64,000 bases of DNA from positions 1 to 64,000 of the forward strand of contig CAVRQT010000003.1 of NCBI GenBank assembly GCA_963723515.1, written 5' to 3'. This stretch comes from Vulcanimicrobiota bacterium. Lineage in GTDB: Bacteria; Vulcanimicrobiota; Vulcanimicrobiia; Vulcanimicrobiales; Vulcanimicrobiaceae. Under the pieces are notes generated by a model that saw nothing but the letters and a program-made list of their open reading frames with translations, did not search any database and was not told the origin of the DNA. The position numbers and the translations under genes were made by a program. This document shows positions 46,220-59,921 of the stretch, piece by piece; positions within the stretch are counted from its first letter, which is position 1; each line of letters opens with the position of its first letter.

Positions 46220-46284
46220 AGCACCCTCAATTTAGCAACAAGCAAGCCACTTCGTTGTCACCATGCGCGCCTATGATGGCGCGC

Positions 46285-46500
46285 ATGTTTGATCTTGCCC
46301 CCCAATTAGCGAGCGCGCTTCGCAAAAGCGCCGAACAACTGCAATCGACCGCGATGACGGCAGCCCGCGCGGAAACGAACGCCGGCGCGCCCGTTTCGAA
46401 TCAGGCCATGGCGTCGCTAGCGCGGGAGGCGATCTTCACTGAAACGCTCTTGAGCGCCATCCGATCGCGACTGCAAGAAATCAGGCTCGTGACCAAATGA
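46285..46500 (+). CDS. flgB: Highly reduced FlgB-like proximal rod protein
   Basis: 71 aa; C-terminal AMASLAREAIFTETLLSAIRSRL resembles the FlgB C-helix; first in cluster, overlapping flgC. Confidence 0.5.
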   Translation: MFDLAPQLASALRKSAEQLQSTAMTAARAETNAGAPVSNQAMASLAREAIFTETLLSAIRSRLQEIRLVTK

Positions 46501-46827
46501 ACGCGGACCTGCTCTCCATTGCGGCTCAAGGCATGGACGTGCAACGTGCCGCGCTCGATGTCGCGGCCAGAAATGTTGCCGCCGCTGAGGCTGCGGGCCC
46601 GAAGGGATCGTATGCGCGGTTGGTTCCACGCTTTCATCTCCTTCAGCGTGCCGGAAATACAGAGATCGCATTCGCCGGCGCGGCAACCGAACGTGGTTCA
46701 CACGTGGACATTCTCACGGAGATGGTGTCGGTCCTCAGAGCGTCGCGCGCGTTTGAGGCAAACGCATCCGTCTTCGATCTCGCAAAACGGCTCGCGGAAC
46801 GCACGATCGAGGTGGAGCGCGCAGTGA
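46497..46827 (+). CDS. flgC: FlgC-like rod protein (reads in frame into fliE)
   Basis: IAAQGMDVQRAALDVAARNVA; VDILTEMVSVLRASRAFEAN. Confidence 0.75.
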
Positions 46828-47093
46828 GGGTCGTTCCCTTACAGCCGGATATGCCGCAACCGGCAGTGCAGCAGACCGGGAGCACCGTTAACGCGTTTAC
46901 CGATGCCGTGAGCGCAATCGCCGGGTCGCTCGCGCGAGCCGAAAGCGCTGAAAACGCGTACGCGCTGGGAACGGGCACGTTGCAAAGCGCCGTGCTCGAA
47001 CGTGCGCGCGCCGATGTCGCACTTGCGGTTGCCGCGGCGGCAACTCAACGTACAGCGACCGCGGTGCAATCGATTCTGAACCTTCAGATCTAG
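46824..47093 (+). CDS. fliE: FliE-like protein
   Basis: AYALG...AVLERARADVAL......A.QSILNLQI FliE C-terminal pattern; GGTGGAG RBS before GTG. Confidence 0.7.
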   Translation: MRVVPLQPDMPQPAVQQTGSTVNAFTDAVSAIAGSLARAESAENAYALGTGTLQSAVLERARADVALAVAAAATQRTATAVQSILNLQI

Positions 47094-47096
47094 CCG

Positions 47097-48398
47097 ATGT
47101 CTTGGCCGAAGATGCTGCGAGCTTCGTTCGCTGCTCTCCCTCGGCCGGTAATCGTGATCGCCATTGCGGTTGCCGCCCTCAGCCTCATTGCGGCACTGTT
47201 CTTTTCGTTGCGTGGCGGTCAGGCCGCGCTCTTCGCCGGACCGGTGCATGCCGAACAGTTGGACGAAGTTGAGCAGCGCCTCGCGGAGTGGGACGTTCCT
47301 TTCACTCCCTTGGCCGACAATATCATGGTCAACTCAAGGCTGCGCAACGCACTTCTGCTGCGGCTTTCGCTCGCGGGCGTTCCGCACAGCCATATCGAGT
47401 CTTCGAGCGAGATGCTCACAAGAATCGGCGCTCTGACGCCGCAATCGATCGTCGATGAACAGCAGCGCAACGGGTTGGCAGCCGATCTCGAGCTGGCCTT
47501 GCGCGGGATCGACGGCGTCGATGATGCCACGGTGATCATCGCCCCGGCAAAGGCGGCGATCTATGCCGACGAGCATGCCCGCGATGCGACGGCCAGCGTA
47601 CGGCTTCACCTGCGCGCCGGCGCGCGGCTTCCGCCAAACGCCGTTGCGGGGATTCGTGCGTTCGTCGCGGCCGGTGTGCCCGACCTCGCGCCAAAGAACG
47701 TGACGATCGTTGACGACCGCGGTGTTGCGCTGCGCGACGAAATCGTCGATGCAGATCCGCAAGAGCTTCAGCCGGCGATTCAAAGCGCTCTGGATCAAAC
47801 ATTCGGCGCCGGCGTTTCCGTCGTACGCCTCGCGACATCGCCGGAGGGCGGAGGCTCGTCGTTAGGCCTTCGGCGCTCGATGCTTGTGCTCGTCGATCAG
47901 CGGCATGCGCCGCGTCTCGATGAAGTCAGTGCGGTTGCGTCGGCGGCCGGGGGCTTCGATTTTCGCCACGGCGATCGTCTTGACGTGGAGGCCGTGCACT
48001 TTGGAGAGACGACGCCGCATCGAAAGACAATTTGGCTCGCATTTTTGGGAAGCGCGTTGTCGATCGCACCCACGGTAATCGCGAGCGTCGCCTTGCTGAT
48101 CGGTTTACGGATCGGGATACGGCCTGCGGTAAGCATCCTCAAGACGATCGTTCGCAGCGCAACGATTGCGCGGACACAACGAACCACCCTAAGTCTTGCG
48201 CCGGCTCAGGTTCGCGGCGTGTTGCGCGGTGAGCCGCCGCACACCGCAGCCGCAATCATCAGCGCATTGCCCGCGGCAACGGCGGCCGCAGTCCTCGACA
48301 TGTATCCGGCCGAAGAACGCACCGCGATCATTCGCCGGATGTCGCGCGCGCAGTCCCCGCTGCTGCCGGACGTGGAGACGTTGATCTCGCATGCCTGA
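47097..48398 (+). CDS. fliF: Short FliF (MS-ring) fused to FliG middle domain
   Basis: TM1, LELALRGIDGV..A.V.I, TASV.L, V.AGVP.L...NVTIVDDRG, GFD..GD.L.V, TM2, then LRGEPPHTAAAIIS.LP...AA.VL (FliG EHPQ region). Confidence 0.8.
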   Translation: MSWPKMLRASFAALPRPVIVIAIAVAALSLIAALFFSLRGGQAALFAGPVHAEQLDEVEQRLAEWDVPFTPLADNIMVNSRLRNALLLRLSLAGVPHSHIESSSEMLTRIGALTPQSIVDEQQRNGLAADLELALRGIDGVDDATVIIAPAKAAIYADEHARDATASVRLHLRAGARLPPNAVAGIRAFVAAGVPDLAPKNVTIVDDRGVALRDEIVDADPQELQPAIQSALDQTFGAGVSVVRLATSPEGGGSSLGLRRSMLVLVDQRHAPRLDEVSAVASAAGGFDFRHGDRLDVEAVHFGETTPHRKTIWLAFLGSALSIAPTVIASVALLIGLRIGIRPAVSILKTIVRSATIARTQRTTLSLAPAQVRGVLRGEPPHTAAAIISALPAATAAAVLDMYPAEERTAIIRRMSRAQSPLLPDVETLISHA

Positions 48399-48861
48399 GT
48401 TTCGCACCCTCGTCGCCGTCCTTTCGAACGTCGAGGCGTCGCCGCAAGCAGCGCCTGAACCAGCGGTGATTTTCGATCCTACCGCTGCGACGGTCCCCGA
48501 AGCGATCGACATCGCGCTTAGCGATGCGCGGTTGATGCGTGCCCACTTGCGCGAGACGCTCGAAGAATCGTTCGACGATCTTCTGAGGGACATTGCGAGC
48601 GATGTCGTTGGTCGTGAGCTGCAGCTGCAACCGGTCGAGATCAAGCAGATCATCGTCGCCGCCATCGATCGGTACAGAGCCGAAATGCCGCTGCGCACAC
48701 GAGTTCATCCCGATGATGTGGCGGCGCTGAGAGATCTGGCCATCGACGTTGTTCCGGACGGCGCTCTAAAACGTGGTGACGCGTTTTTGGAGCTGCGCGA
48801 TGGAGCCGTCGATCTGAGTCTTGGCATCAGATTGGAGCGCTTGCTCGAAGCACGGGCGTGA
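48391..48861 (+). CDS. fliH: FliH/SctL-like stator protein (short)
   Basis: IA..VVGREL, RVHPDD, D.ALKRGD......GAVD. Confidence 0.75.
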   Translation: MPEFRTLVAVLSNVEASPQAAPEPAVIFDPTAATVPEAIDIALSDARLMRAHLRETLEESFDDLLRDIASDVVGRELQLQPVEIKQIIVAAIDRYRAEMPLRTRVHPDDVAALRDLAIDVVPDGALKRGDAFLELRDGAVDLSLGIRLERLLEARA

Positions 48862-50096
48862 AAGGCGAGAGCATCGGCCGTGTTTGCGATGCGCGGGCGG
48901 GCGTCGTTCAAGCAAAGTTGCCCGCGGTTTCGATCGGTGAGAGCGTCGAAATTCTGAGCCGCCGGCGCACGACTCTTGGAATCGTGCAGCGCGTCGGTGA
49001 GCGCGCCGTTTCGATTGCCTCGCATGGCGATGTGGAAGGCATCTCGGCCGGGGACGTCGTGCGCGCCTTACCTTACGGAAATGTTCGAGCGCCGGGCTTA
49101 GCCGCATTGGGACGCGCAATCGACGCGCGCGGACAGGCGATCGACGGTGGCCCGCCGGTGGTTTCTCGGCGTGGGGCCCGGATGAGAATTCGTCCATCGC
49201 CGTCGGCGCGAACGTTGCCGACCGCGCCGCTTTGGACCGGCATCAAAGCGATCGATGCGCTGTTGACGATTGCGCGCGGCGGAAGAGTCGGCATCTTCGG
49301 TCCGGCCGGTGCCGGCAAATCATCATTGCTCGCAATGTTAGACCGCGGTTGCCGTGCTGATGTGTCGGTCGTTGCGCTGATCGGCGAACGAGGGCGCGAA
49401 GCGCGCGAGTGGTTCGCGCGGTTGCATCCGCGCATGACCGTCATCTGCGCGGCGAGCGATCGCCCTGCGGCCGAACGTGTAACGGCCGCCGAATTGGCCA
49501 TTGCGCAAGCCGCACGTCTGCGTGGGCTCGGACTGGATGTCTTGCTGATTCTCGATAGCCTTGCCCGCCTTGGGGCGGCGTTGCGCGACGTTGCCGTTGC
49601 TTGCGGTGAGCCGGTCGGGCGCGCAGGTTTTCCGCCGAGCGTTTTCGCTCAAATTGCCCGCTTCGTTGAGTCGGCTGGAGCAACGGCAACCGGTTCAATA
49701 ACGCTCGTTGCGAGCGTGCTGAGCGAGGACGATCGAGAACCGATCGCGGAGGCCGCGCGATCGCTGCTTGACGGCCACATCACTTTGTCGCGTTCGCTCG
49801 CCCACGCGGGACGTTATCCCGCCATCGACGTGACATCGAGCGCCAGCCGCTTGATGTCCGCGGTGATATCGCAAACGCATGCTGAAGATGCCGCGACGCT
49901 GCGGCGGAGCCTCTGCGCCCTCAAGGACTCTGAAGACGCGCGCTCGATCGGACTGCCGCAACACGATCCGTGGATCCTTGCCGCGCAGCAGAACGAAGAG
50001 GCCATCGAGGAGCTGCTCCGGCAAGGAGTCGAACCGGTGGCGGCTGCCCTCACGTTACGCGACCTCCATATGCTCGCACAGCAGCTTCAACCCTAG
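48858..50096 (+). CDS. fliI: Type III export ATPase FliI/SctN
   Basis: TGIKAID, GPAGAGKS Walker A, IGERGRE, LLILDS Walker B, LDGHI.LSR, YPAID...S.SRLM. Confidence 0.92.
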   Translation: MKGESIGRVCDARAGVVQAKLPAVSIGESVEILSRRRTTLGIVQRVGERAVSIASHGDVEGISAGDVVRALPYGNVRAPGLAALGRAIDARGQAIDGGPPVVSRRGARMRIRPSPSARTLPTAPLWTGIKAIDALLTIARGGRVGIFGPAGAGKSSLLAMLDRGCRADVSVVALIGERGREAREWFARLHPRMTVICAASDRPAAERVTAAELAIAQAARLRGLGLDVLLILDSLARLGAALRDVAVACGEPVGRAGFPPSVFAQIARFVESAGATATGSITLVASVLSEDDREPIAEAARSLLDGHITLSRSLAHAGRYPAIDVTSSASRLMSAVISQTHAEDAATLRRSLCALKDSEDARSIGLPQHDPWILAAQQNEEAIEELLRQGVEPVAAALTLRDLHMLAQQLQP

Positions 50097-50126
50097 GCGC
50101 CGTTACGCAGCGCGCAGCAATTCGTT

Positions 50127-51695
50127 ATGTCGATAGTGACGCTGAGCATCTTAACGCTGGCCGCAGTCTGCGCGATCGCCGACGTGTCGCCGGCCGCCCA
50201 ACCGCGCGACGCCGCGCAAGTCTTGCAGTTATACCGTCGCGCGGTCGCGCCGACGGGTGCGTCGCCTCCGGCGGTTTGGCAGGCGCGAGGAACACTCAGT
50301 GGAGCGAATCTCGTCGGGACGTTTGCGTCGTGGCATGACGCCGAACACGATCGGCTCGATCAGGATCTCGGGGTGCGGCGCGAACGCACGTTGCGAATCG
50401 GCGAGCGCGTCTACGTCCAGAACAGCAGCGGAGATGTGATCGAGCTCAAAGGCCTGCTGCTGCGCCGTTCCCATACGCAAGACTTCATCGGCTCGAGCGA
50501 TCTCTTTCGACAGCCGCAATTTTCACGCTATCTCGGCCGTACAACGCTTTCGGACGGCCGCGATGTCTTTGCGCTTCAGGTGTCGCCGCCCAACGGCGAA
50601 ACGGAGACAATCGACGTCGATGCGCGCACGCATCTGCTCGACCGTTTAGAGTACATCGACGGCGACGGTCTCTTCACGATCGATTTCTCGGATTACCGGC
50701 CGGTCGACGGGTTTATGTTTGCATTTAGAGAGGTTCAGTCCGACGGCGACCATCCATACGACGTGACGCAAACGATGACGCAAATCAATGCCGGCACACC
50801 GATTTCAGCGCCCATTTTTGCACCATTGCAGCCGGCACGGCTGCAAGCATCTGGACCGGTGACGGTCCCATTGACCGAACGCAACGGCGGGCTCTATGCG
50901 GACGTCTCGATATTCGGACACAGCTTTTCTTTTTTGGTCGACAGCGGTGCGCAAGGGATTGTCGTGGACGCCAAAGCCGCGGCCTCGTTGCTGCTGGTGC
51001 CGCAAGGCTCGTTTGAAGCGCGCGGCGCGACTCGCAGCGGCGGAATCGGCGTTGCGCCACTGGACCACCTGATGATCGGCGGCGCGAAATTGCCCGTCGG
51101 CGTCGTTTCAATCCTCGACCTGGGCGCCTCTACGGCGGGACGCTTCCCGATCGACGGGATTTTGGGCTTTCCGCTTTTTGGCGCCGGCGTCGTCACGCTC
51201 GATGCGGCACACGCCACGATGACGATTTCACCACCTGGAACCCGGAGTGTTACGGGAGAGCCGTTTGAAATCGACGTCGATCGAGAACTTCCCGAGGTCG
51301 TCGCCAGCGTCAACGGTGTACAGGGACGCTTTCTGCTAGACACCGGCAACGGGAATGAACTGTTGTTGTTCCGCAATTTTCTTGAGGAACATCGCGGCGT
51401 ATTGCAGTTCAACCCGACCGGTTCGGTCGGAAGTTATGGCGTCGGCGGCGGCACGCGGGCCTATGCAACCGACGTCGATGAGCTTGACCTCGGATCATAT
51501 CGACTCTTTCACGCCAACACGAACGTGATGCTTTCGACCGAAGGTGCATTCGCGGATCGTTTTGATGCCGGCAACATCGGCCTTGGTGTACTGAAGAACT
51601 TCGTGGTGACGTTTGACGTACCGAATCGGATGCTCTATCTTGCGCCTGGCGCGAACTTCGATGACGGCCGGGGCCGGCGCGTGTTTCGGCAATAA
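50127..51695 (+). CDS. Secreted aspartyl protease with two retropepsin-like domains
   Basis: Signal peptide; FLVDSGA..DGILG and FLLDTGN..GNIG. Confidence 0.85.
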   Translation: MSIVTLSILTLAAVCAIADVSPAAQPRDAAQVLQLYRRAVAPTGASPPAVWQARGTLSGANLVGTFASWHDAEHDRLDQDLGVRRERTLRIGERVYVQNSSGDVIELKGLLLRRSHTQDFIGSSDLFRQPQFSRYLGRTTLSDGRDVFALQVSPPNGETETIDVDARTHLLDRLEYIDGDGLFTIDFSDYRPVDGFMFAFREVQSDGDHPYDVTQTMTQINAGTPISAPIFAPLQPARLQASGPVTVPLTERNGGLYADVSIFGHSFSFLVDSGAQGIVVDAKAAASLLLVPQGSFEARGATRSGGIGVAPLDHLMIGGAKLPVGVVSILDLGASTAGRFPIDGILGFPLFGAGVVTLDAAHATMTISPPGTRSVTGEPFEIDVDRELPEVVASVNGVQGRFLLDTGNGNELLLFRNFLEEHRGVLQFNPTGSVGSYGVGGGTRAYATDVDELDLGSYRLFHANTNVMLSTEGAFADRFDAGNIGLGVLKNFVVTFDVPNRMLYLAPGANFDDGRGRRVFRQ

Positions 51696-51740
51696 CCTCG
51701 TTATCGATCGACCATTTTCGCGGCTTATGCTATGCGCGCA

Positions 51741-52277
51741 ATGGACCGAACGCTCTGTGTCCTCAGCGTCCCGATTCAAACCTGCGATCGGCGAGCGCTT
51801 TCCGAAGCATGGTACGGCGCGCTGCACGCTGCGCAACCAGCGGCCGCGTCAGGAACAACTCTAAGACTTAAGACCGGCGGCGTTGCCGATGTGCCGAAGC
51901 GACGCTTCATCGAGTTCACAGCGCGCCAAAACAGCGCCGCTCGAGGTGGTGTCTCGCGACAAACATCAACCGCGCGCCGTTTCACGTCGCTGGAAGGGCA
52001 AGCCGCGTTTGCTTCGCGGAGATCTTCGCTTGCACGGCGGATCGAGCGCACGTTTTTGAAAGCGGCTCATCCAGCACGCCAGTCCACGTTCACGCTTGAA
52101 GATGGGCGCACGCGAGTGCACGTCATGTTGCGCCGGCTGGGCCGAAGCGTACACCTCGTTGCGCTTTGCACCGCTGCCGCTCGCCTTCCGGTCGCTCAGG
52201 CACTCGCCGAGATTCAACGCCGGCTTCGAGCGCGCGGAGTTGATTTACGCACCGCTCTAACGCAGCAGGTCGTTTGA
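51741..52277 (+). CDS. Putative short FliK-like (length control/substrate switch) protein
   Basis: C-terminal RVHVMLRR.G.SVHLVA.C..AAR..VAQALAEIQRRL.ARGV resembles the FliK_C/T3S4 domain; syntenic position. Confidence 0.5.
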   Translation: MDRTLCVLSVPIQTCDRRALSEAWYGALHAAQPAAASGTTLRLKTGGVADVPKRRFIEFTARQNSAARGGVSRQTSTARRFTSLEGQAAFASRRSSLARRIERTFLKAAHPARQSTFTLEDGRTRVHVMLRRLGRSVHLVALCTAAARLPVAQALAEIQRRLRARGVDLRTALTQQVV

Positions 52278-52993
52278 TGATCGTTTCATCGGCGACGGCG
52301 CAAGCACTGGAGAAGATCACGGAGCGTGAATCTGAGTTGCGCGCGGCGTTTACTCCCGGCGCACAGCCGACCCACCCGGAAATTACGGCGGCGCCGTCAG
52401 TTGAAGCGGATCGCTCGCCCCTCAGCGTCGCACCGGACGGAAACGCATATTTCGTCGTTCGCGATCCGAATGGCGGCGAGGCGTTTACTCGAGACGGCGT
52501 CTTTCACATCGACGGTGCAGCGCTCGTCGATCGAGACGGCACGCCGGTGCTTGGTTTTCAGCGTGGCGGCGCGCTGAGGCCGTTGCGGCTCGATCCGATC
52601 GACAGCGCACTGGGACGCATACGAAATGTTCGCATCGAAAACGACGGCGCGCTCACGTACGAAAAGAGTGCGATCGACCCGGTGACGCGCCAACCGCAGC
52701 GCGTCAAGATTGTTGCCGGCCGTTTGGCCTTGGCGCGTTTCTCGGCTGCCACGCGGCTCGAGCCGATCGGCGACACGTACTTGCGCGCGCCTGCCGGCAT
52801 ACCACCGCACGTTGGAACGCCCGCTGATGGAAATTTTCTCCCGCTGATTACACATGCGCATTTGCGCAGCGGCATCGACCTGCTGACGGGCATCGATCGG
52901 CTACAGGAATCGTACATGGCGTTTGACGCATTGCGCGCCGCCCATTCAGCGGAAGGGCGAACCGAGAAAATCGCGATGGATTTGCTGAAGTGA
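52274..52993 (+). CDS. FlgE/FlgF/FlgG-family hook/rod protein (short)
   Basis: GNAYFVV....GEAFTRDG.F..DG.LV..DG.PVLG; C-terminal SGIDL..helix. Confidence 0.8.
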   Translation: MMIVSSATAQALEKITERESELRAAFTPGAQPTHPEITAAPSVEADRSPLSVAPDGNAYFVVRDPNGGEAFTRDGVFHIDGAALVDRDGTPVLGFQRGGALRPLRLDPIDSALGRIRNVRIENDGALTYEKSAIDPVTRQPQRVKIVAGRLALARFSAATRLEPIGDTYLRAPAGIPPHVGTPADGNFLPLITHAHLRSGIDLLTGIDRLQESYMAFDALRAAHSAEGRTEKIAMDLLK

Positions 52994-53781
52994 TTCGAAC
53001 GCTCGCCTTTGCACCGGAATGCGAAATGCTCGGCGGACGACAAATTCGCCGCGCACGCTTCGAGCGCCGTTCGTCTTTGCCGATAGCGGCTGCGTGCCTG
53101 ATCGCCAACGGAATTCGCGAGACGCTTGCGATGCTCGTTGCGAAGGCGGTTCGCGTGCGACTGATGGAGCCGGTCTGTCCCGACCCGGACCTCTGGCCGG
53201 TCCTTGTCAATGATGCCCGTCTCTACCAAGTGCGCGGAACGCTGAACACCGCGACCTTCGTCTTAGGCAGCACCGATGCGATCGGGCTCACGCGAATGCT
53301 GTTCGGTGCAAGCGAGCAAACCGAAGACCGCCTTTCGCGAATTGAAGAGCACGTCTTAGGCCGCATGATCGAAGCGCTTGCCGCAACGCTCGCGCCGGTG
53401 TGCGGGAAGACGGTTGAAATCGCCGCCCCCGGCCGCGAGCTGCCGGGTTGGCTAACGTTTCTTGACGTGCTCATCGAGGAGCCCGTGTCGTTGCGCCTCG
53501 GCATCGCGCTGACTCGCGATACGTTCGAAGCGCCGGCGCCGCTCTTTCGAGCGGAACATCTGCTCGATGTGCGGTTGCACTTGACCGCACAGACGAGGGA
53601 AACGGAAATCGATTCGTCTCGGTTAATGCGCCTGGAGGCGGGCGCAGTCGTGCCGCTCGGCGCGCAACGAGAGGGGTGCGATCGCCTCAAGATGGGCGAT
53701 CGAACGGTCGCCGTTGGAACGTGCGGCGCGCACGGCGATTCCCGTGCTTTCTCGGTCAGCAAACTTCTGTCGGCAGCATGA
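52990..53781 (+). CDS. fliM: Divergent FliM-like C-ring protein
   Basis: LSRIEEHVL middle-domain motif; C-terminal SpoA-like LMRLEAGAVVPL..GTCG; precedes fliN. Confidence 0.6.
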   Translation: MIRTLAFAPECEMLGGRQIRRARFERRSSLPIAAACLIANGIRETLAMLVAKAVRVRLMEPVCPDPDLWPVLVNDARLYQVRGTLNTATFVLGSTDAIGLTRMLFGASEQTEDRLSRIEEHVLGRMIEALAATLAPVCGKTVEIAAPGRELPGWLTFLDVLIEEPVSLRLGIALTRDTFEAPAPLFRAEHLLDVRLHLTAQTRETEIDSSRLMRLEAGAVVPLGAQREGCDRLKMGDRTVAVGTCGAHGDSRAFSVSKLLSAA

Positions 53782-54080
53782 ATCCGCAGGGGTTTACGGC
53801 TGCCGAAGATCCGGAGCCGCCAAACCTGACATTGCTGATGAATGTCGCGCTGCAGATCTGCGCGCAACTCGGAACGTGCACGTTGACTGTCCGTGAGGTG
53901 CTCTCGATGGGCGCGGGATCGATCGTCGAGCTCGATCGGGGATGTACCGATCCCGTCGAGTTGATCGTCAACGGAAAGCGCGTTGCACGGGGCGAGATCG
54001 TCGCCGTTGAGGAGAAGCTTGGCGTGCGCATTACCGAACTGATTGCCCTTCGACAGGCTCAGGATGACACGGCGCCGTGA
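53778..54080 (+). CDS. fliN: FliN C-ring protein
   Basis: GSIVELDR...PVELIVNGKRVARGEIVAV...GVRITE. Confidence 0.9.
   Translation: MNPQGFTAAEDPEPPNLTLLMNVALQICAQLGTCTLTVREVLSMGAGSIVELDRGCTDPVELIVNGKRVARGEIVAVEEKLGVRITELIALRQAQDDTAP
54046..54069. repeat. REP-like half element inside the fliN 3' end
   Basis: cccttcgacaggctcaggatgaca. Confidence 0.8.
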
Positions 54081-54733
54081 GGGAATGGCTCGCGCTCGCA
54101 CAGCACGCTCATGCAGCACTGCCGCTCGATATTCTGGGCGGCTTGCTTTTGATCGGCATCGCGCCGTTCATCTTGGTGATGTCGACGTCGTTTGTCAGGA
54201 TCGTCGTCGTGCTCTCGCTCGTGCGCTCCGCGATCGGTGCCGCCGCGCTTCCGCCGAATACCGTTCTAACGGGCCTAGCACTGATTCTGACGCTGGTGAT
54301 CATGTCACCGACGCTGAATGCAATTTCAAAGCACGCCGTCGAGCCGTACACGCGCGGACGGCTCTCGCAAGGCGCCTTTCTCGAACGTGCCGCGACGCCG
54401 CTGCGCGCCTTCATGCTGCGGCAGACGCGCGCCGACGACATTGCTCTCTTCTCGCGTGTGGCACATCGTTCGCGTGAACCGGCGGCACAAACGCCCACGT
54501 TCGTTTTGGTTCCCGCGTTCGTCGTCGGGGAACTGAGAAGCGCCTTTGCAATCGGCTTCGCGCTCTATCTTCCGTTCGTTGCGATTGACCTAGCCGTGGC
54601 GTCGATCCTGATGGGCTTGGGCATGTTCATGTTGAGCCCGCCCGTCATCTCGTTGCCGGCGAAGTTATTGTTGTTCGTGATGGTTGACGGTTGGGCGCTC
54701 GTTTGCGGAGGCGTCGTTTCCAGCTTCCGCTAA
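54077..54733 (+). CDS. fliP: Export gate FliP/SctR
   Basis: TSFVRIVVVL, PPNTVL.GLAL, PAF...EL, MGLGMFML.P..ISLP.KLLLFV.VDGW. Confidence 0.92.
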   Translation: MREWLALAQHAHAALPLDILGGLLLIGIAPFILVMSTSFVRIVVVLSLVRSAIGAAALPPNTVLTGLALILTLVIMSPTLNAISKHAVEPYTRGRLSQGAFLERAATPLRAFMLRQTRADDIALFSRVAHRSREPAAQTPTFVLVPAFVVGELRSAFAIGFALYLPFVAIDLAVASILMGLGMFMLSPPVISLPAKLLLFVMVDGWALVCGGVVSSFR

Positions 54734-54750
54734 AGTAGCGCGCAACGCCG

Positions 54751-55656
54751 ATGCGAATCGATCTCGCGCTAGCGACGCGCCGTCCGTTCTTTTCCTTCGA
54801 ATTCTTTCCGCCGAAAAGCGACGACGGACAGGAGCAGCTTTTTCGCGCGATTGAGACGCTGTGCACGCTGCATCCATCCTTCGTTTCAGTCACCTACGGA
54901 GCGGGAGGATCGACCCGCGCCCGCACGACGACGCTCACCAAGCAAATCCAAAACGAAATCGGACTCGCGGCGATGGCGCACATCACGTGCGTTGGGCACT
55001 CGCGCCGTGAACTGCGTGAGATCTTTTACGATCTCGAGCAAGCCGGCATCGAAAACGTTCTCGCTCTACGCGGCGACCCGCCGCGCGGTCAGGCGTTCCA
55101 GATGAGCGCTGACGGCTTCTCGTACGCCTCTGAGCTTACCGCGATGCTTGCGCGGGACTTTAATTTTACGGTCGGCGGCGCGGCATATCCGGAGAAGCAC
55201 CTGGAAGCAAAGACGCTTGACGCCGATCTGCAACACCTTGCGTTGAAGGTGCGCGCCGGGGCGAAGTTCTTGATCACGCAACTCTTCTTTGACAACGAAT
55301 ACTACTTCTCGTTTGTCAAGCGCGCCCGCGCGATCGGCATCACCGTACCAATCTTGCCCGGCATCATGCCGATTACGAACTTCGAGCAGATCTCGCGCTT
55401 CACCGCGATGTGCGGCGCAACGATTCCACCGAAGTTGTATGCGGAGTTGCTTGCCCGTGCCGATCAGCCTGATGCGGTCAAAGAGCTCGGCGTCTCCTAC
55501 GCCACGTTGCAGTGCCAGGACTTGCTCGCGCGGGGAGCGCCGGGCATTCATTTTTATACATTGAACAAATCCCCGGCCACGCGCGCCGTCGTTTCCGCGC
55601 TGCTCGCTGCCAGCGCGTGGCAGCCGATGCCGCAGACGAAGTTTCAAGCGCTCTAG
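54751..55656 (+). CDS. metF: 5,10-methylenetetrahydrofolate reductase
   Basis: SFEFFPPK, SVTYGAGGS, LALRGDPP, YPEKH, ITQLFFD, HFYTLN. Confidence 0.95.
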   Translation: MRIDLALATRRPFFSFEFFPPKSDDGQEQLFRAIETLCTLHPSFVSVTYGAGGSTRARTTTLTKQIQNEIGLAAMAHITCVGHSRRELREIFYDLEQAGIENVLALRGDPPRGQAFQMSADGFSYASELTAMLARDFNFTVGGAAYPEKHLEAKTLDADLQHLALKVRAGAKFLITQLFFDNEYYFSFVKRARAIGITVPILPGIMPITNFEQISRFTAMCGATIPPKLYAELLARADQPDAVKELGVSYATLQCQDLLARGAPGIHFYTLNKSPATRAVVSALLAASAWQPMPQTKFQAL

Positions 55657-55868
55657 AGGAACCTCCGAAGAAGCCCCACGCGCCCAGTCGCCGCAGCGCT
55701 TTTAGGCCATTTCATTGTTGCTGCGGCGGCCACAATGCGCTGCATTGCGTCCGTCCTCGCGCCTCGAACTGGCCAAAAATCGCCGCGACGGTAGAGCACG
55801 GAGGCTTCTTCGGGGGTTCCTAAAACTTCGGCAAAACGGCGCTCATCTGCGTCGATTACACTCGCGCG

Positions 55869-56138
55869 ATGGATGTCTTCGATCGGCTGCTCCGCGAGTC
55901 TCTCGTCGTCGCGGCGTTGCTCTGCTTGCCCGTGTTGATCGCTGCAACCGCGGTGGGAACGGCCGTAGCGCTGCTGCAAGCCGCGACGCAAGTACAAGAG
56001 CAAACCTTATCACTGCTTCCCAAACTCCTGGTTGTCGGCGTGGCGATTGCACTCTTCGGCGGATTTGGGATGCATCTGTGCGCTGCGCTCTTCGTTGAAG
56101 CGATCGCGCAGCTTGCGCAGATCGTGCACGGCGTTTGA
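55869..56138 (+). CDS. fliQ: Export gate FliQ/SctS
   Basis: LQAATQVQEQTLSLLPK. Confidence 0.9.
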   Translation: MDVFDRLLRESLVVAALLCLPVLIAATAVGTAVALLQAATQVQEQTLSLLPKLLVVGVAIALFGGFGMHLCAALFVEAIAQLAQIVHGV

Positions 56139-56851
56139 ATGCGACGGCGCTCCTCGTCTTTGCACGCTGTGCCGGTTTCGTCTTTAAAGCGCCCGGCTTC
56201 TCGCATCCGAGCGTTCCGCCGCCGGTGCGCGCGGGATTGGCGCTCGTTCTCGCGATTGGTCTGCAACCGGCAACCGCTCATGCTGGATCCGCCTTCGGCC
56301 TGCCGTTCGTCTTTGGGATGGTTAGCGAGTTTGCGATCGGCGCCGCAATCGGCATAGCGACAGCGGTCCTCTACGACGGCGCGTATGCCGCTGGTCGCGT
56401 ACTGGACGATTACGTTGGAATTCGCGGCAGCGTGCCTTCAGCGGCATTTTTTGCGTCGAGCGGCTTCGGACGAGTTTGGTCCCTGACGTTTCTCGCCGGG
56501 TTCTTCTTGCTGCGCGGTTACGATCCGATCTTGCGCATCCTCGCGGACGGCTTTAACCGCCTGCCGCCGGGCGCTGCGTTACATCAAACGGGTTTTCAGC
56601 TTTTGGCCATCTCGTTGCCCGCGCTGATGCTCAAAGCTGCGCTCTTCATCGCCGGTCCCGCGATTGCACTCGTGTTCGTCGCGCAATGTGCTTTGGGAAC
56701 GCTCTCGCGCGCAATTCCGCGGTTCGCGAGCTTCACGCTCTCGTTTCCCATCAACTTCGCGGGCGTGCTGATCGTCACGCTGATTATGGTCCCGCTACTG
56801 CTTCATACCGGCGGCCGCCCGTGGATCTTTCTGCCCTTTCTTAGGCGATGA
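56135..56851 (+). CDS. fliR: Export gate FliR/SctT
   Basis: FAR......AP.F....VP..VR, E..IG, AG..LD, LG.LSRAIP; between fliQ and flhB. Confidence 0.85.
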   Translation: MNATALLVFARCAGFVFKAPGFSHPSVPPPVRAGLALVLAIGLQPATAHAGSAFGLPFVFGMVSEFAIGAAIGIATAVLYDGAYAAGRVLDDYVGIRGSVPSAAFFASSGFGRVWSLTFLAGFFLLRGYDPILRILADGFNRLPPGAALHQTGFQLLAISLPALMLKAALFIAGPAIALVFVAQCALGTLSRAIPRFASFTLSFPINFAGVLIVTLIMVPLLLHTGGRPWIFLPFLRR

Positions 56852-57870
56852 GCGAACCGAGCGGGGAACGGCAATTTGAGGCCAGCGCCGCACGCTTACG
56901 TAAAGCCCGAGAGGAAGGTGACGTACCACGCTCGGCCGATCTCTGCGGCGCGCTCGCCTTCGCCGCGGCGACTTTGGCAATCGCCGCCGGCATGCCGTGG
57001 GTCGTAACGTCCGCTGAGGCTTCGATTCGGGAGGCGGCGCTGCAGCGGCGACTCGATTTCGCCTTGCTGATTTGCCTCCTCGCATCGGCGATGCTCTTGC
57101 CGCTCGCTTCAGGCGCCTGCGGCGCAATTGCCGCCGGCGTCTTGCAGACCGGTGGTTTGCAATTGCGAATGCCGCGGCTCTCGTTCACCCGGCTCAATCC
57201 AAGTGACGGATGCAAGCGCATCTTTTCGCGGGACACGTTCTTGACGATGTTGCGCGGTGCGATTGCCCTCAGCGGAATCCTCGCCGTTCTTGTGCTTACT
57301 TCCATTCGCGTCGTCGTTCAGGCGGCTGGTTCTTCAGAACCCGCCGCACTTGGCGGAGCAACATGGAATGGAGCGCTTTGCGTCGCGATTGCGGGCGCAG
57401 CATTTGCGGTTCTCTTTGGCGCGGTCGATTTCATCACGATGGTGAGGCGGTGGCGCGGACGTTTGCGTATGACGCTCGCGGAATTCAAGCGCGATCAAAA
57501 GGAGACTGAAGGGGATCCGCTGCTGCGCAGCCGGCGCCGCTCCGCGCAACGACAATCTTCCCGTTTAGCGGTGCAGCGAGTTGCAGATGCGGCATTCGTT
57601 GTCGTCAATCCGACGCACATCGCGATCGCTTTGGAATATCGGCCACCCGATGTTGCGGTGCCGCGCGTGTTGATTCGCGCCGCCGGCGAGGCGGCAATGC
57701 GCGTTCGGGCGGAGGCTGTCGCGCAGCAAATTCCGATCGTTGAGGATACGGCGCTTGCACGCGCGCTTTACACAACGACCGAAGTCGGCCAGCCGGTTCC
57801 GCTCGAACTCTACATCGCCGTGGCGGCGATCGTCGTTGCGCTTTCGCGCGCGAGCGCGATTTCCAAATGA
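56848..57870 (+). CDS. flhB: Export switch protein FlhB/SctU
   Basis: RLRKAREEGDVPRS, LRMT..E.K...KETEGDP, intact NPTH autocleavage motif. Confidence 0.92.
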   Translation: MSEPSGERQFEASAARLRKAREEGDVPRSADLCGALAFAAATLAIAAGMPWVVTSAEASIREAALQRRLDFALLICLLASAMLLPLASGACGAIAAGVLQTGGLQLRMPRLSFTRLNPSDGCKRIFSRDTFLTMLRGAIALSGILAVLVLTSIRVVVQAAGSSEPAALGGATWNGALCVAIAGAAFAVLFGAVDFITMVRRWRGRLRMTLAEFKRDQKETEGDPLLRSRRRSAQRQSSRLAVQRVADAAFVVVNPTHIAIALEYRPPDVAVPRVLIRAAGEAAMRVRAEAVAQQIPIVEDTALARALYTTTEVGQPVPLELYIAVAAIVVALSRASAISK

Positions 57871-59921
57871 AACGCTGGCCAACGTACGGCCTTGCGGCGG
57901 CGGTCCTTTCTATCGTCTTCATGCTGATCGTCCCGCTTCCGTCCGAGCTGCTGGACGCGCTTCTCGCGTTGAACATTCTTGGCTGTGCGCTGGTCTTGCT
58001 TATGAGCGTCACGATTACGGAACCGCTGGAATTCTCAACGTTTGCGCCGGCCCTGTTAATTGCGACGCTCTTCCGGCTGGCGCTGGATGTCAGCGCGACG
58101 CGCTTGATCCTGACGCAGGGCCACCTCGCGGGCGGAGCCGGCGCGATCATCCCGACCTTTGGACAGTTCGTCGTCCGCGGCAATTTGGTCGTCGGCCTGA
58201 TCGTCTTTACGATCCTCGTAACAATTCAATTCATCGTCATCGCACAAGGCTCGCAGCGGATCGCCGAGGTCGCGGCCCGCTTTACGCTCGATGCAATGCC
58301 AGGCAAGCAGATGGCCATCGACGCTGAGGTGCATGCCGGCGTTATCGAGGCGGAAAACGCGCGCATGAAGCGCGCGCTGGTGCAGAAGGAGGCAGATTTC
58401 TACGGCGCCATGGACGGCGCCGGCAAATTCGTCAAAGGCGACGCGATCGCGGCGCTGGTCATAGTCGTTTTGAACCTGATCGGTGGTTTGATCGTCGGAA
58501 TCGGCTACCATGGGCTCTCGCCCGCCGACGCACTCAATACGTTCGCGTTGCTTTCAATCGGAAACGCGCTCGTGACGACGCTGCCGGCATTTCTGATGTC
58601 GATCGCGATGGGCATGATGGTCACGCGCGTTTCGGCCGGCGGATCGCTCGGCTTCGATCTCTCGCAACAGGTCTTTGCAAGACCGGACCTCTTGCGTGCG
58701 GCAGCGTGCTTGATTTTCGTGCTGGCGATCGTGCCGGGTTTGCCGCGACCGCTGTTTCTGATTTTAGGCATGTGCGCGATGGGCGCCGCGCAACTTCTGC
58801 TCCGCATGCATGCTGCCAACGACGCGGCCGAAAAAGAGGCCAAGGAACGCGCCCGACGCAGCGCCATTCGAAGGCCGGAGATGGCGCTTTCGCTCGTCGG
58901 CGTCGACGCGGTTTGCATTGAGTTCGGTCATGCGTTGACGCCGCTGCTCGCGTCACCCGCGTGCGAGCAGTTGCTCGATCGAATCGGTGAAGTTCGCCGC
59001 GCGCTCGCCGCCGATATCGGCGTCGTCCTGCCCGGCGTGCGTCTGCGCGATAATCCCGCCGACGATGCGGACGGCTACGTCATTCGCATTCGCGAGGAGC
59101 GCGTCGCGCAGGGCCGATTACAGCTCGATGCCCTCCTTGCGGTCTGCGAACATGCACGCATAAGGCACCTGGACGGAATGCAAACCTCGGAACCGGTGTA
59201 CGGCTTGCCGGCGAAGTGGATTTCGGCACGGGATCGGGACGCGGCAATTTCCGCCGGAGCGCTCGTCTTCGATCCCATCTCCGTTTTAGGCTCTCATTTG
59301 GCGGAAGTTGCTCGCGAGCACGCCGATGCGCTGCTCGGGCGTCAGGAGTTGCAAACGTTGCTGGAGCATCTGCGCACGATCGTGCCGGCGCTGATAAAAG
59401 AAGTCGGAACGGATAACTTGCCGCTGGCGACGCTGCATCGGGTCTTCACCTTGCTGCTTCGGGAGCGGATCTGGCCCCGCGATCCGAGCGCTGCGCTCGA
59501 AGCGATCGTCGATGCCGCAGCGACTTCACGCGACGCACGAGAGATTGCGGAACGCGCTCGTGCTGCAATCGTTCCGTCGCTCCTGCGCCGCAGCGAAACA
59601 GCGTCATTGGAAGCGATGATCTTCGCACCGCCATTGGAACGCGAGCTGACCGAAGCGTGGATTCCATCCGTTGATGGACCAACCGCCGCACCCGATCCCT
59701 CGGTTGCTATGCGGCTGCGGGAGTTTGCGCTTCGATTTGCGGCGAGCGTCCCGCGCGAACGCTCGGCAGCGGTATGCGGAAGCCGCCTGCGACCGATGCT
59801 TGCGGATTTCTTCTTGCGCGCGGGAATCGCGCTGCCCGTCTTTTCTTATAACGAGCTTCCAACCAATATCGAACTTCTGCCGCGCGCGCTCTTTGGCGCT
59901 GAACCCGCCTTAGCTTCTTAA
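57867..59921 (+). CDS. flhA: Export apparatus FlhA/SctV
   Basis: RIAEVAARFTLDAMPGKQMAID, EADFYGAMDGAGKFVKGDAIA, FSYNEL. Confidence 0.95.
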   Translation: MKRWPTYGLAAAVLSIVFMLIVPLPSELLDALLALNILGCALVLLMSVTITEPLEFSTFAPALLIATLFRLALDVSATRLILTQGHLAGGAGAIIPTFGQFVVRGNLVVGLIVFTILVTIQFIVIAQGSQRIAEVAARFTLDAMPGKQMAIDAEVHAGVIEAENARMKRALVQKEADFYGAMDGAGKFVKGDAIAALVIVVLNLIGGLIVGIGYHGLSPADALNTFALLSIGNALVTTLPAFLMSIAMGMMVTRVSAGGSLGFDLSQQVFARPDLLRAAACLIFVLAIVPGLPRPLFLILGMCAMGAAQLLLRMHAANDAAEKEAKERARRSAIRRPEMALSLVGVDAVCIEFGHALTPLLASPACEQLLDRIGEVRRALAADIGVVLPGVRLRDNPADDADGYVIRIREERVAQGRLQLDALLAVCEHARIRHLDGMQTSEPVYGLPAKWISARDRDAAISAGALVFDPISVLGSHLAEVAREHADALLGRQELQTLLEHLRTIVPALIKEVGTDNLPLATLHRVFTLLLRERIWPRDPSAALEAIVDAAATSRDAREIAERARAAIVPSLLRRSETASLEAMIFAPPLERELTEAWIPSVDGPTAAPDPSVAMRLREFALRFAASVPRERSAAVCGSRLRPMLADFFLRAGIALPVFSYNELPTNIELLPRALFGAEPALAS

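Follow-up and report, generated by a model that had tools for sequence, protein, structure and literature searches.

A cluster of sixteen genes (here termed CL) at positions 46285–59921 on the + strand of the DNA analysed (the window, 64 kb in length) probably encodes a working, non-rotary descendant of the flagellum, composed of an export gate with FliH/FliI and a reduced FliF ring bearing FliM/FliN, with FliJ and FliO provided in trans. The window covers the start of contig 3 (first 64 kb) in a 2.11-Mb genome (four contigs, ~60% GC, 88% complete) from Eremiobacterota (class Eremiobacteria), a phylum named mostly from metagenome-assembled genomes. One sequencing run (DNA, labelled soil metagenome) shares 0.05 of the window's words. 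A first-pass annotation, made from the sequence alone, had described CL as a miniaturised flagellum-derived export system lacking motor, switch and filament functions; its account of the descent and the missing motor holds, its claim of a missing switch does not, and its list of missing genes overstates the loss.

Gene organization and ring proteins of CL

The CL genes are tightly packed or overlapping and lie directly 3′ of rplM-rpsI, and the only gap among them is one of 213 bp between metF and fliQ. They were identified with Pfam and NCBIfam profiles, which agree with the gene order and strand given at first pass, and encode a full type III export gate (FliPQR, FlhB, and FlhA), FliH and FliI, a short rod set, FliM and FliN, and a FliF fusion, as follows.

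46285–46500, +, 71-aa two-helix protein in the flgB position (no family match; alternative start TTG at 46255)
46497–47093, +, FlgC (~residues 1–109) and FliE (from GTG 46824) in one open frame, 198 aa (Flg_bbr_C 3e-6; FliE 4.6e-4; TIGR01395 FlgC 2.4e-12)
47097–48398, +, FliF (YscJ_FliF ring domain, two membrane helices) and the first half of the FliG middle domain, 433 aa (PF01514 2.4e-22; PF14841 2.4e-9)
48391–48861, +, FliH, short, 156 aa (PF02108 2.6e-9)
48858–50096, +, FliI ATPase, 412 aa, with Walker A/B (PF00006 7.3e-59; PDB matches to SctN and FliI)
50127–51695, +, secreted protein, 522 aa, with two retropepsin-like aspartyl protease domains (PF13650 1.6e-13, two stretches)
51732–52277, +, protein of 181 aa, conserved, in the fliK position (unmatched by family, PDB or fold)
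52274–52993, +, short rod/hook-family protein, 239 aa (PF22692 FlgE/F/G D1 2.3e-9; TIGR03506 7.4e-12; FlgF models ~1e-10)
52990–53781, +, FliM without the N-terminal CheY-binding stretch, 263 aa (FliMN_C 6.4e-8; fold match)
53778–54080, +, FliN (PF01052 1.5e-22; TIGR02480 89.8 bits, above cut-off)
54077–54733, +, FliP (PF00813 1.1e-71; TIGR01103 229 bits, above cut-off)
54751–55656, +, MetF, methylenetetrahydrofolate reductase, between fliP and fliQ (PF02219 2.8e-93)
55654–55824, no strand assigned, ~160-bp dispersed repeat, one copy, between metF and fliQ (blastn matches)
55869–56138, +, FliQ (PF01313 9.1e-21)
56135–56851, +, FliR (PF01311 2.4e-31)
56848–57870, +, FlhB with NPTH autocleavage motif (PF01312 1.8e-71)
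57867–59921, +, FlhA (PF00771 1.3e-201; TIGR01398)

All of the motifs quoted at first pass for the export proteins are present. FlhA contains RFTLDAMPGKQM at residue 138 and FYGAMDGA at 178, FlhB has NPTH at residue 254, and FliI has GPAGAGKS at 148, LLILDS at 229, and SRLM at 330. The aspartyl protease protein has a hydrophobic N-terminus that reads from its sequence as a Sec-type signal.

FliF carries a short piece of FliG. Residues 369–432 of the fusion align to residues 127–193 of a full FliG encoded by a sister lineage (see below), including the region of the EHPQ motif; the FliG part comprises 65 residues from the start of the middle domain, with neither FliG_N nor FliG_C. In an alignment of 25 sequences this tail is the best-conserved part of the protein, and the window FliF and six other sequences are without ~55 periplasmic residues present in the other 18. 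In flagella FliG binds the FliF C-terminus through FliG_N and FliM through its middle domain, and meets the stator with FliG_C; with FliF and the FliG middle domain linked covalently, FliG_N would be unnecessary and no torque surface would be left. When the FliM middle domain and the fused piece of FliG were modelled as a complex, the score was 0.50, and one control scored 0.55.

The 263-aa protein labelled FliM is not matched by the Pfam FliM model itself, and is a true FliM by fold. Its AlphaFold model (pLDDT 85.6) has a CheC-like middle domain and a FliN-like C-terminal domain; the best Foldseek match is Salmonella FliM in the C ring, spanning both domains (E 8.8e-11), followed by FliM middle domains and CheC/CheX. 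FliM in known flagella carries an N-terminal CheY-binding segment, for which the modelled protein has no space, its first strand beginning at residue 2. The switch is therefore not lacking as first described: FliM (middle and FliN-like domains), FliN, and the FliM-binding part of FliG are kept, and the parts lost are FliG_N, FliG_C, and the CheY-binding N-terminus of FliM.

Two genes occupy expected slots and encode proteins without recognizable relatives. The 71-aa protein holds the flgB slot of the paralogous full-size cluster and is conserved in five relatives (mean column identity 65%), with a size compatible with either a stripped rod protein or a needle-like subunit (SctF). It has no Pfam, NCBIfam, or PDB match, its profile gives chance-level matches only against PDB sequences, and hhalign against the FlgB of the paralogous cluster finds nothing. 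The 181-aa protein is conserved in seven relatives and holds the FliK slot of the same paralogous cluster; no match was found with Pfam (including the C-terminal T3S4 (Flg_hook) domain), NCBIfam, or hhalign against the paralogous FliK, and its profile gives only chance-level matches to PDB sequences. Its AlphaFold model (pLDDT 57.7) has no Foldseek match at E ≤ 0.001 and only generic alpha/beta matches by VIA-align (Z ~8). FlgB-like and FliK-like are labels of position alone, the slots agreeing with the first-pass names and sequence, profile, and fold comparisons returning nothing. A hook of FlgE with an FlgD cap and junction proteins was not found; CL has a single 239-aa D1-domain protein.

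The flgC and fliE genes listed at first pass are both represented, here by one in-frame open frame and not by two genes. This single frame (junction near 46824) is exclusive to the source genome, and in all seven relatives examined FlgC and FliE are separate genes with overlapping stop and start in different frames. Either a change of one base or an error in the assembly would explain the joined frame, and the internal GTG could still serve as the start of FliE.

The spacer repeat at 55654–55824 has 10 blastn matches (81–100% identity) on three contigs of its own genome, counting itself, and 10 in a same-genus genome. A 10-pair GC-rich stem-loop at 46262–46287 lies between rpsI and the first CL gene, overlapping the likely ATG, and may act as a terminator or a translational control element. 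A promoter and terminator scan gave counts at the level of shuffled sequence (3 vs 2.9 and 25 vs 20.2).

Descent and conservation of CL

Pairwise scores place the CL core proteins approximately midway between those of flagella and injectisomes. Against solved chains, FlhA scores 377.4 bits with an FlhA and 378.6 bits with a SctV, and FliI scores 210 bits with FliI and 228 bits with SctN; against NCBIfam profiles, FlhA scores 650.5 bits with TIGR01398 FlhA and 515.9 with SctV, and FliP scores 229 with the flagellar and 184 with the injectisome profile. Phylogenies favour the flagellum, as first proposed. In an FlhA tree (IQ-TREE LG+C20; 34 sequences comprising 10 CL, 10 other Eremiobacterota, 7 named FlhA, and 7 named SctV, the SctV sequences being from plasmid records and including no Myxococcus or Chlamydia systems) the SctV sequences form a clade (100/100), as do those of CL (100/99). 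CL is sister (100/100) to one of two FlhA lineages of the phylum's other classes, this pair is sister (83/94) to the lineage holding the canonical systems of the window's family, and CL and these relatives fall among flagellar FlhA of the Terrabacteria type. A 15-taxon tree of concatenated FliP-FliQ-FliR-FlhB also sets the Sct pair apart (100/100), with CL (100/100) on a very long stem. As CL is nested within flagellar FlhA and apart from SctV, it derives from the flagellum independently of the injectisome.

The sister lineage, which belongs to another class, has a cluster with the same order and full-size parts: FlgB (153 aa), FliF (558), FliH (371), FliK (341), a D1-domain protein (271), and FliM (508), together with FlgC, FliE, a FliG with N, M, and C domains, FliI, FliJ, an SLT protein, FliN, FliO, FliPQR, FlhB, and FlhA. 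On these comparisons CL is a miniature form of the phylum's second flagellar paralogue. Three large genomes of other classes (G062, G004, and G014) contain additional open frames (~380–1020 aa) matching only the cytoplasmic C-terminal domain of FlhA at 26–37% identity, with up to seven in G062.

The FliF fusion was used as a query against 151 genomes sampled from the phylum (the tallies given here include four unpublished genomes, G128, G165, G160, and G162, and no statement rests on them alone), with matches in 141. Strong, CL-type matches occur in 65 of 71 genomes of the window's family, the one genome of its sister family, and nine of nine in a third family, or 75 of 81 in the class; the other classes have weak matches only (E 1e-9 to 1e-24), for which the listed open frames are mostly ~560 aa. 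The named relatives of the fusion are all Candidatus Eremiobacterota (Baltobacter, Cybelea, Tumulicola, Rubrimentiphilum, and Vulcanimicrobiaceae). By tblastn, seven family genomes share one gene order (flgB-position gene, flgC, fliE, fliF-fliG piece, fliH, fliI, protease, fliK-position gene, rod/hook gene, fliM, fliN, fliP, metF, fliQ, fliR, flhB, flhA), and the sister-family genome (n=1) has the same order minus metF.

The accessory genes vary more. The metF gene is between fliP and fliQ in all seven family relatives; the protease gene is present in five of these and in the sister family, and missing in two. Six relatives encode an SLT lytic transglycosylase (~190 aa) between fliI and the protease gene; it has no signal-peptide-like N-terminus and is not in the source genome, where the closest SLT paralogue lies elsewhere and begins with a lipoprotein-like signal. 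Three relatives have unrelated genes inserted beside metF, on the fliQ side in two of them and on the fliP side in the third; these are ABC transporter, dehydrogenase, racemase, and GGDEF genes and three open reading frames of 360–593 aa without Pfam match, with no obvious cargo among them.

The FliF fusion is among the faster-evolving CL genes. Its rate ratio dN/dS (Nei-Gojobori; 36 pairs from nine relatives) is 0.17–0.34 in the 14 closest pairs and 0.17–0.25 in the seven closest, where dS is 0.9–1.2 and near saturation. A DNA search of a same-genus genome (77% complete) found the spacer repeat only and not CL. The first-pass annotation had pointed to synteny and dN/dS in relatives as a check for pseudogenisation; gene order is kept and dN/dS is ~0.2, and CL appears to be under purifying selection and not decaying.

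Six family genomes (G043, G081, G089, G107, G123, and G124) that are 94–100% complete have no FliF-fusion match; G043 and G089, the only two of these sampled for FliG_C, are also without it, and some family members may have neither system. A 1.9-Mb family genome, G077, has two CL-type FliF copies (C18:20838–21545 and C62:80527–81198), together with a FliG_C match and no flagellin match.

The canonical flagellum and the fliJ-fliO pair

CL is kept whether or not the cell has a true flagellum. Flagellin matches occur in 54 of the 151 genomes, including 32 of 71 in the window's family (25 strong and seven weak, below cut-off) and none of nine in the third family of the class. FliG_C is present in 33 of 73 family genera, tracking flagellin, and FlgI in 17 of 41. 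Among 31 genomes sampled for both flagellin and FliG_C, the two occur together in 17, both are missing from 13, and in one FliG_C stands alone; CL is present in 17 of 17 with both and 11 of 13 with neither. Weak Flagellin_N matches in one genus (g4; L029–L032) were treated as noise, being of ~22 bits (E ~1e-4), below cut-off, and far from CL; they sit in open frames of 420–680 aa in several genomes of the genus.

In the genomes checked that have both systems, these are encoded separately. Four single-contig flagellin-positive genomes have two FlhA and two FliF loci each, the CL-type FlhA being 60–64% identical to that of the window and the canonical FlhA ~40%, with the canonical FliF scoring ~200 bits on the Pfam model. 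In one such genome the canonical operon includes FliF, full FliG, FliH, FliI, FliJ, FliK (561 aa), FlgD, FlgE (609 aa), MotA, MotB, FliM, FliY, FliO, FliPQR, FlhB, FlhA, and CheC. Each of five genomes checked that bear flagellin, FliG_C, and FlgI has a complete second export gate and FliF, and a single-contig, 99%-complete genome without flagellin has CL loci only. The canonical operon of G136 has trpE- and trpG-like anthranilate synthase genes (L027:12010–13931) between the fliJ region and fliK, an insertion that echoes metF within CL.

Parts for torque and filament, reported missing at first pass, were detected neither in the source genome nor in single-contig CL-only relatives, the latter having no flagellin, FliG_C, or FlgI. 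A six-frame search of the whole source genome gave no match to Flagellin_N, and that genome has no FlgI (P ring), no Flg_bbr_C besides FlgC, and nothing above noise for FliG_C (best match E 0.08 at an unrelated locus). Its sole MotA_ExbB gene is ExbB, followed by two ExbD and two TonB C-domain genes, with a TonB-domain gene also upstream. The same genome was searched by tblastn with 36 queries, 22 from the canonical flagellar operon of a relative and 14 from the paralogous cluster. The relative's MotA, MotB, FlgD, FlgE, and FliK gave no matches, and the only matches outside CL were FliO, the ATP synthase genes, one further weak match of FliI, and four SLT-domain paralogues. The absence of a secretin from the cluster also stands: the single secretin of the genome (C3:705465–706733) lies at a distance of 650 kb, where its neighbours are aro genes, ftsZ, and genes for an FtsA-like protein and a sigma factor. 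Pfam and NCBIfam profiles detect no SctC secretin, SctD, needle, tip, or translocator family in CL, and it contains no pilus or chemotaxis genes.

The list of losses is too long by two genes. Both fliJ and fliO are absent from the window as stated, and both are encoded elsewhere on the same contig (G000:C3:529991–530692), 470 kb from CL and four bases apart, so that FliPQR, FlhB, FlhA, FliHIJ, and FliO are all encoded in the genome. FliJ is matched by PF02050 (4e-5) and TIGR02473 (4e-7), both below cut-offs, and FliO by PF04347 (2e-8), above cut-off. The pair directly follows GH125 and purA; in a relative with the canonical system GH125-purA precedes the entire operon, in which fliJ and fliO are widely separated. 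The order GH125-purA-fliJ-fliO also occurs in the same-genus genome and in four CL-only genomes assembled as single contigs, and a fifth CL-only genome has FliO in another context and no detected FliJ. Among the CL-only genomes tested, FliO is above cut-off in five of five, and FliJ is matched in three of five, once above cut-off.

This arrangement indicates that a canonical flagellar operon was deleted at this site and that only fliJ and fliO are left of it. In the FlhA tree, genomes with CL alone are scattered among canonical-bearing ones, which suggests three or more losses of the canonical system, provided that the gene tree follows the species phylogeny. The pair kept corresponds exactly to the export genes missing from CL; its retention argues that CL is in use as an export machine and provides the strongest indirect evidence for this.

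Function of CL and comparison with known systems

CL probably arose within class Eremiobacteria when the second flagellar paralogue of the phylum shrank. The FliPQR-FlhB-FlhA gate with FliH/FliI would be seated in the reduced FliF ring, and a cytoplasmic FliM/FliN ring would hang directly on FliF through the fused, FliM-binding piece of FliG. FliE, the two-helix protein in the FlgB position, FlgC, and the one small rod/hook-family protein would form a very short axial structure, helped through the wall in most genomes by CL's own SLT enzyme, with FliJ and FliO drawn from their remote locus. Such a machine could not rotate. It would export proteins, at least its own rod parts, and the intact NPTH of FlhB and the conserved FliK-position protein suggest a substrate switch after rod completion, followed by the passage of other cargo to the periplasm or beyond; a function in secretion or cell contact, as first proposed, is plausible. 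It is possible, with somewhat less than even confidence, that CL constitutes a third kind of type III machine: an ancient apparatus for non-flagellar secretion, class-wide and independently evolved, that came from a miniaturised paralogous flagellum, has a non-rotating sorting ring on its membrane ring, and builds a minimal rod before exporting non-flagellar cargo.

Several observations weigh against a working export machine of this kind. No substrate, chaperone, or outer-membrane part was identified, and the proteins in the FlgB and FliK positions match nothing, which leaves the rod and the substrate switch partly conjecture. Most CL components score below the NCBIfam flagellar equivalog cut-offs, and the FliPQR-FlhB tree does not resolve the sister lineage of CL. 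The source genome being 88% complete, its own absences are weak, and the argument from absence draws mainly on the single-contig relatives. Parts may be shared between CL and the true flagellum where both occur; the six of 71 family genomes without a match show that the system is dispensable; and the loss of SLT here and of the protease in two relatives may mean that erosion is ongoing.

These last features could be extended to a view of CL as a decaying relic of a second flagellum with no function left, to which the shortening of every structural part, the loss of both SLT and protease in two relatives, the joining of FlgC and FliE in the source genome, the long stem branches in the trees, and the scores of most parts below the family cut-offs would also conform. 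Such decay is improbable, however, as the open frames are intact and in an order kept across three families of the class, dN/dS is low even for one of the faster CL genes, no damage is seen in the catalytic or gate motifs, the fused FliG piece shows almost no variation, and fliJ-fliO appear to have been kept after deletion of the canonical operon. Alternatively, CL could be the base of a flagellum used for swimming, with a filament, hook, stator, and torque parts that went undetected because they have diverged too far or are in DNA missing from the assembly; CL has the gene order of a flagellar operon, the source genome is incomplete, and very divergent proteins can escape HMM (hidden Markov model) searches. 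This is highly improbable given that flagellin, FliG_C, and FlgI are also missing from single-contig CL-only genomes, FliG is cut to a 65-residue piece fused to FliF, FliM is without its CheY-binding end, and a separate full export gate and FliF accompany the flagellum in all five genomes checked. A cultured family member (Vulcanimicrobium alpinus) is also described as having type IV pili and an outer membrane, with no flagella seen and no flagellin gene (PMC9758169); in the supplementary files of that report, searched for 'flagell', the only entry is fliN in a gene table.

The same organism is stated there to be phototactic and to move by type IV pili, and leftover flagellar export components of Lysobacter enzymogenes are reported to control twitching (PMC7277350). 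With no cargo gene linked to CL, the assembled complex could conceivably serve a purpose other than cargo secretion, as a regulator or anchor (e.g. of type IV pilus motility) or as an envelope-spanning scaffold or sensor. This is unlikely: the complete gate, the ATPase, NPTH, and the retained FliJ and FliO matter for export and not for a static scaffold, CL has no pilus or chemotaxis gene, and the Lysobacter apparatus is also reported to export proteins (PMC7688988). Export by a non-rotating complex stays the preferred reading of CL.

No published description of CL was found in the literature searched, and CL is of high interest for research on type III systems. It offers a motor-less export state in nature, conserved across a class of a widespread phylum, beside a normal flagellum in some genomes and alone in others, and the phylum has a cultured member through which it may be accessible to imaging and deletion. 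The FliF-FliG(middle) fusion and the two-helix rod-position protein show how far a basal body can be pared down, and the retained fliJ-fliO pair is a natural genetic hint at the indispensable parts of export. An intermediate stage between flagellum and injectisome has been proposed, and the persistence of a motor-less export intermediate is argued mostly from phylogeny; CL, if indeed a third kind of type III apparatus, would be that intermediate's living counterpart.

Reduction of flagella is known from other lineages. The degenerate flagella of Actinobacteria, with a 'simplest rod', share with CL a rod reduction in a Terrabacteria lineage, but are described as remaining motility organelles (PMC10746217), whereas no torque or filament parts were found for CL. 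Buchnera aphidicola is reported to keep basal-body and export genes without a filament (PMC8109811); it is an obligate insect endosymbiont with a tiny genome, whereas the one run sharing sequence with the window is labelled soil. Lysobacter enzymogenes, like CL, keeps flagellar type III export genes without a flagellin gene, and these are reported to be expressed and to export non-flagellar proteins (PMC7688988). Its apparatus, confined to one genus, is what recently remained of the organism's sole flagellar system, whereas CL is paralogous, remodelled with gene fusions, and class-wide, and, unlike that remnant, coexists with a true flagellum in many genomes.

Compared with the flagellum itself (Firmicutes/Terrabacteria-type fla operon), CL has a homologous gate, ATPase complex, FliF, FliM, FliN, FliE, and FlgC, the same gene order, and an FlhA that falls inside flagellar FlhA. 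It differs in that no flagellin, hook, FlgD, FlgK/L-type, MotAB, FliG_N, FliG_C, or P ring was found, the FliG piece is fused to FliF, the structural proteins are shortened, metF is embedded, and fliJ and fliO are elsewhere. The injectisome, the usual example of a flagellum converted to another machine, is like CL a flagellum-derived export machine without motor or filament, and CL FliI and FlhA score about equally against solved SctN/SctV and solved FliI/FlhA. However, CL lies outside the SctV and SctRSTU clades, has no detected SctC, SctD, needle, tip, or translocator family, and keeps FlgC and FliE, all of which point to a separate derivation. Along with the injectisome, CL seems to be a second example in nature of a flagellum that was converted to another use.

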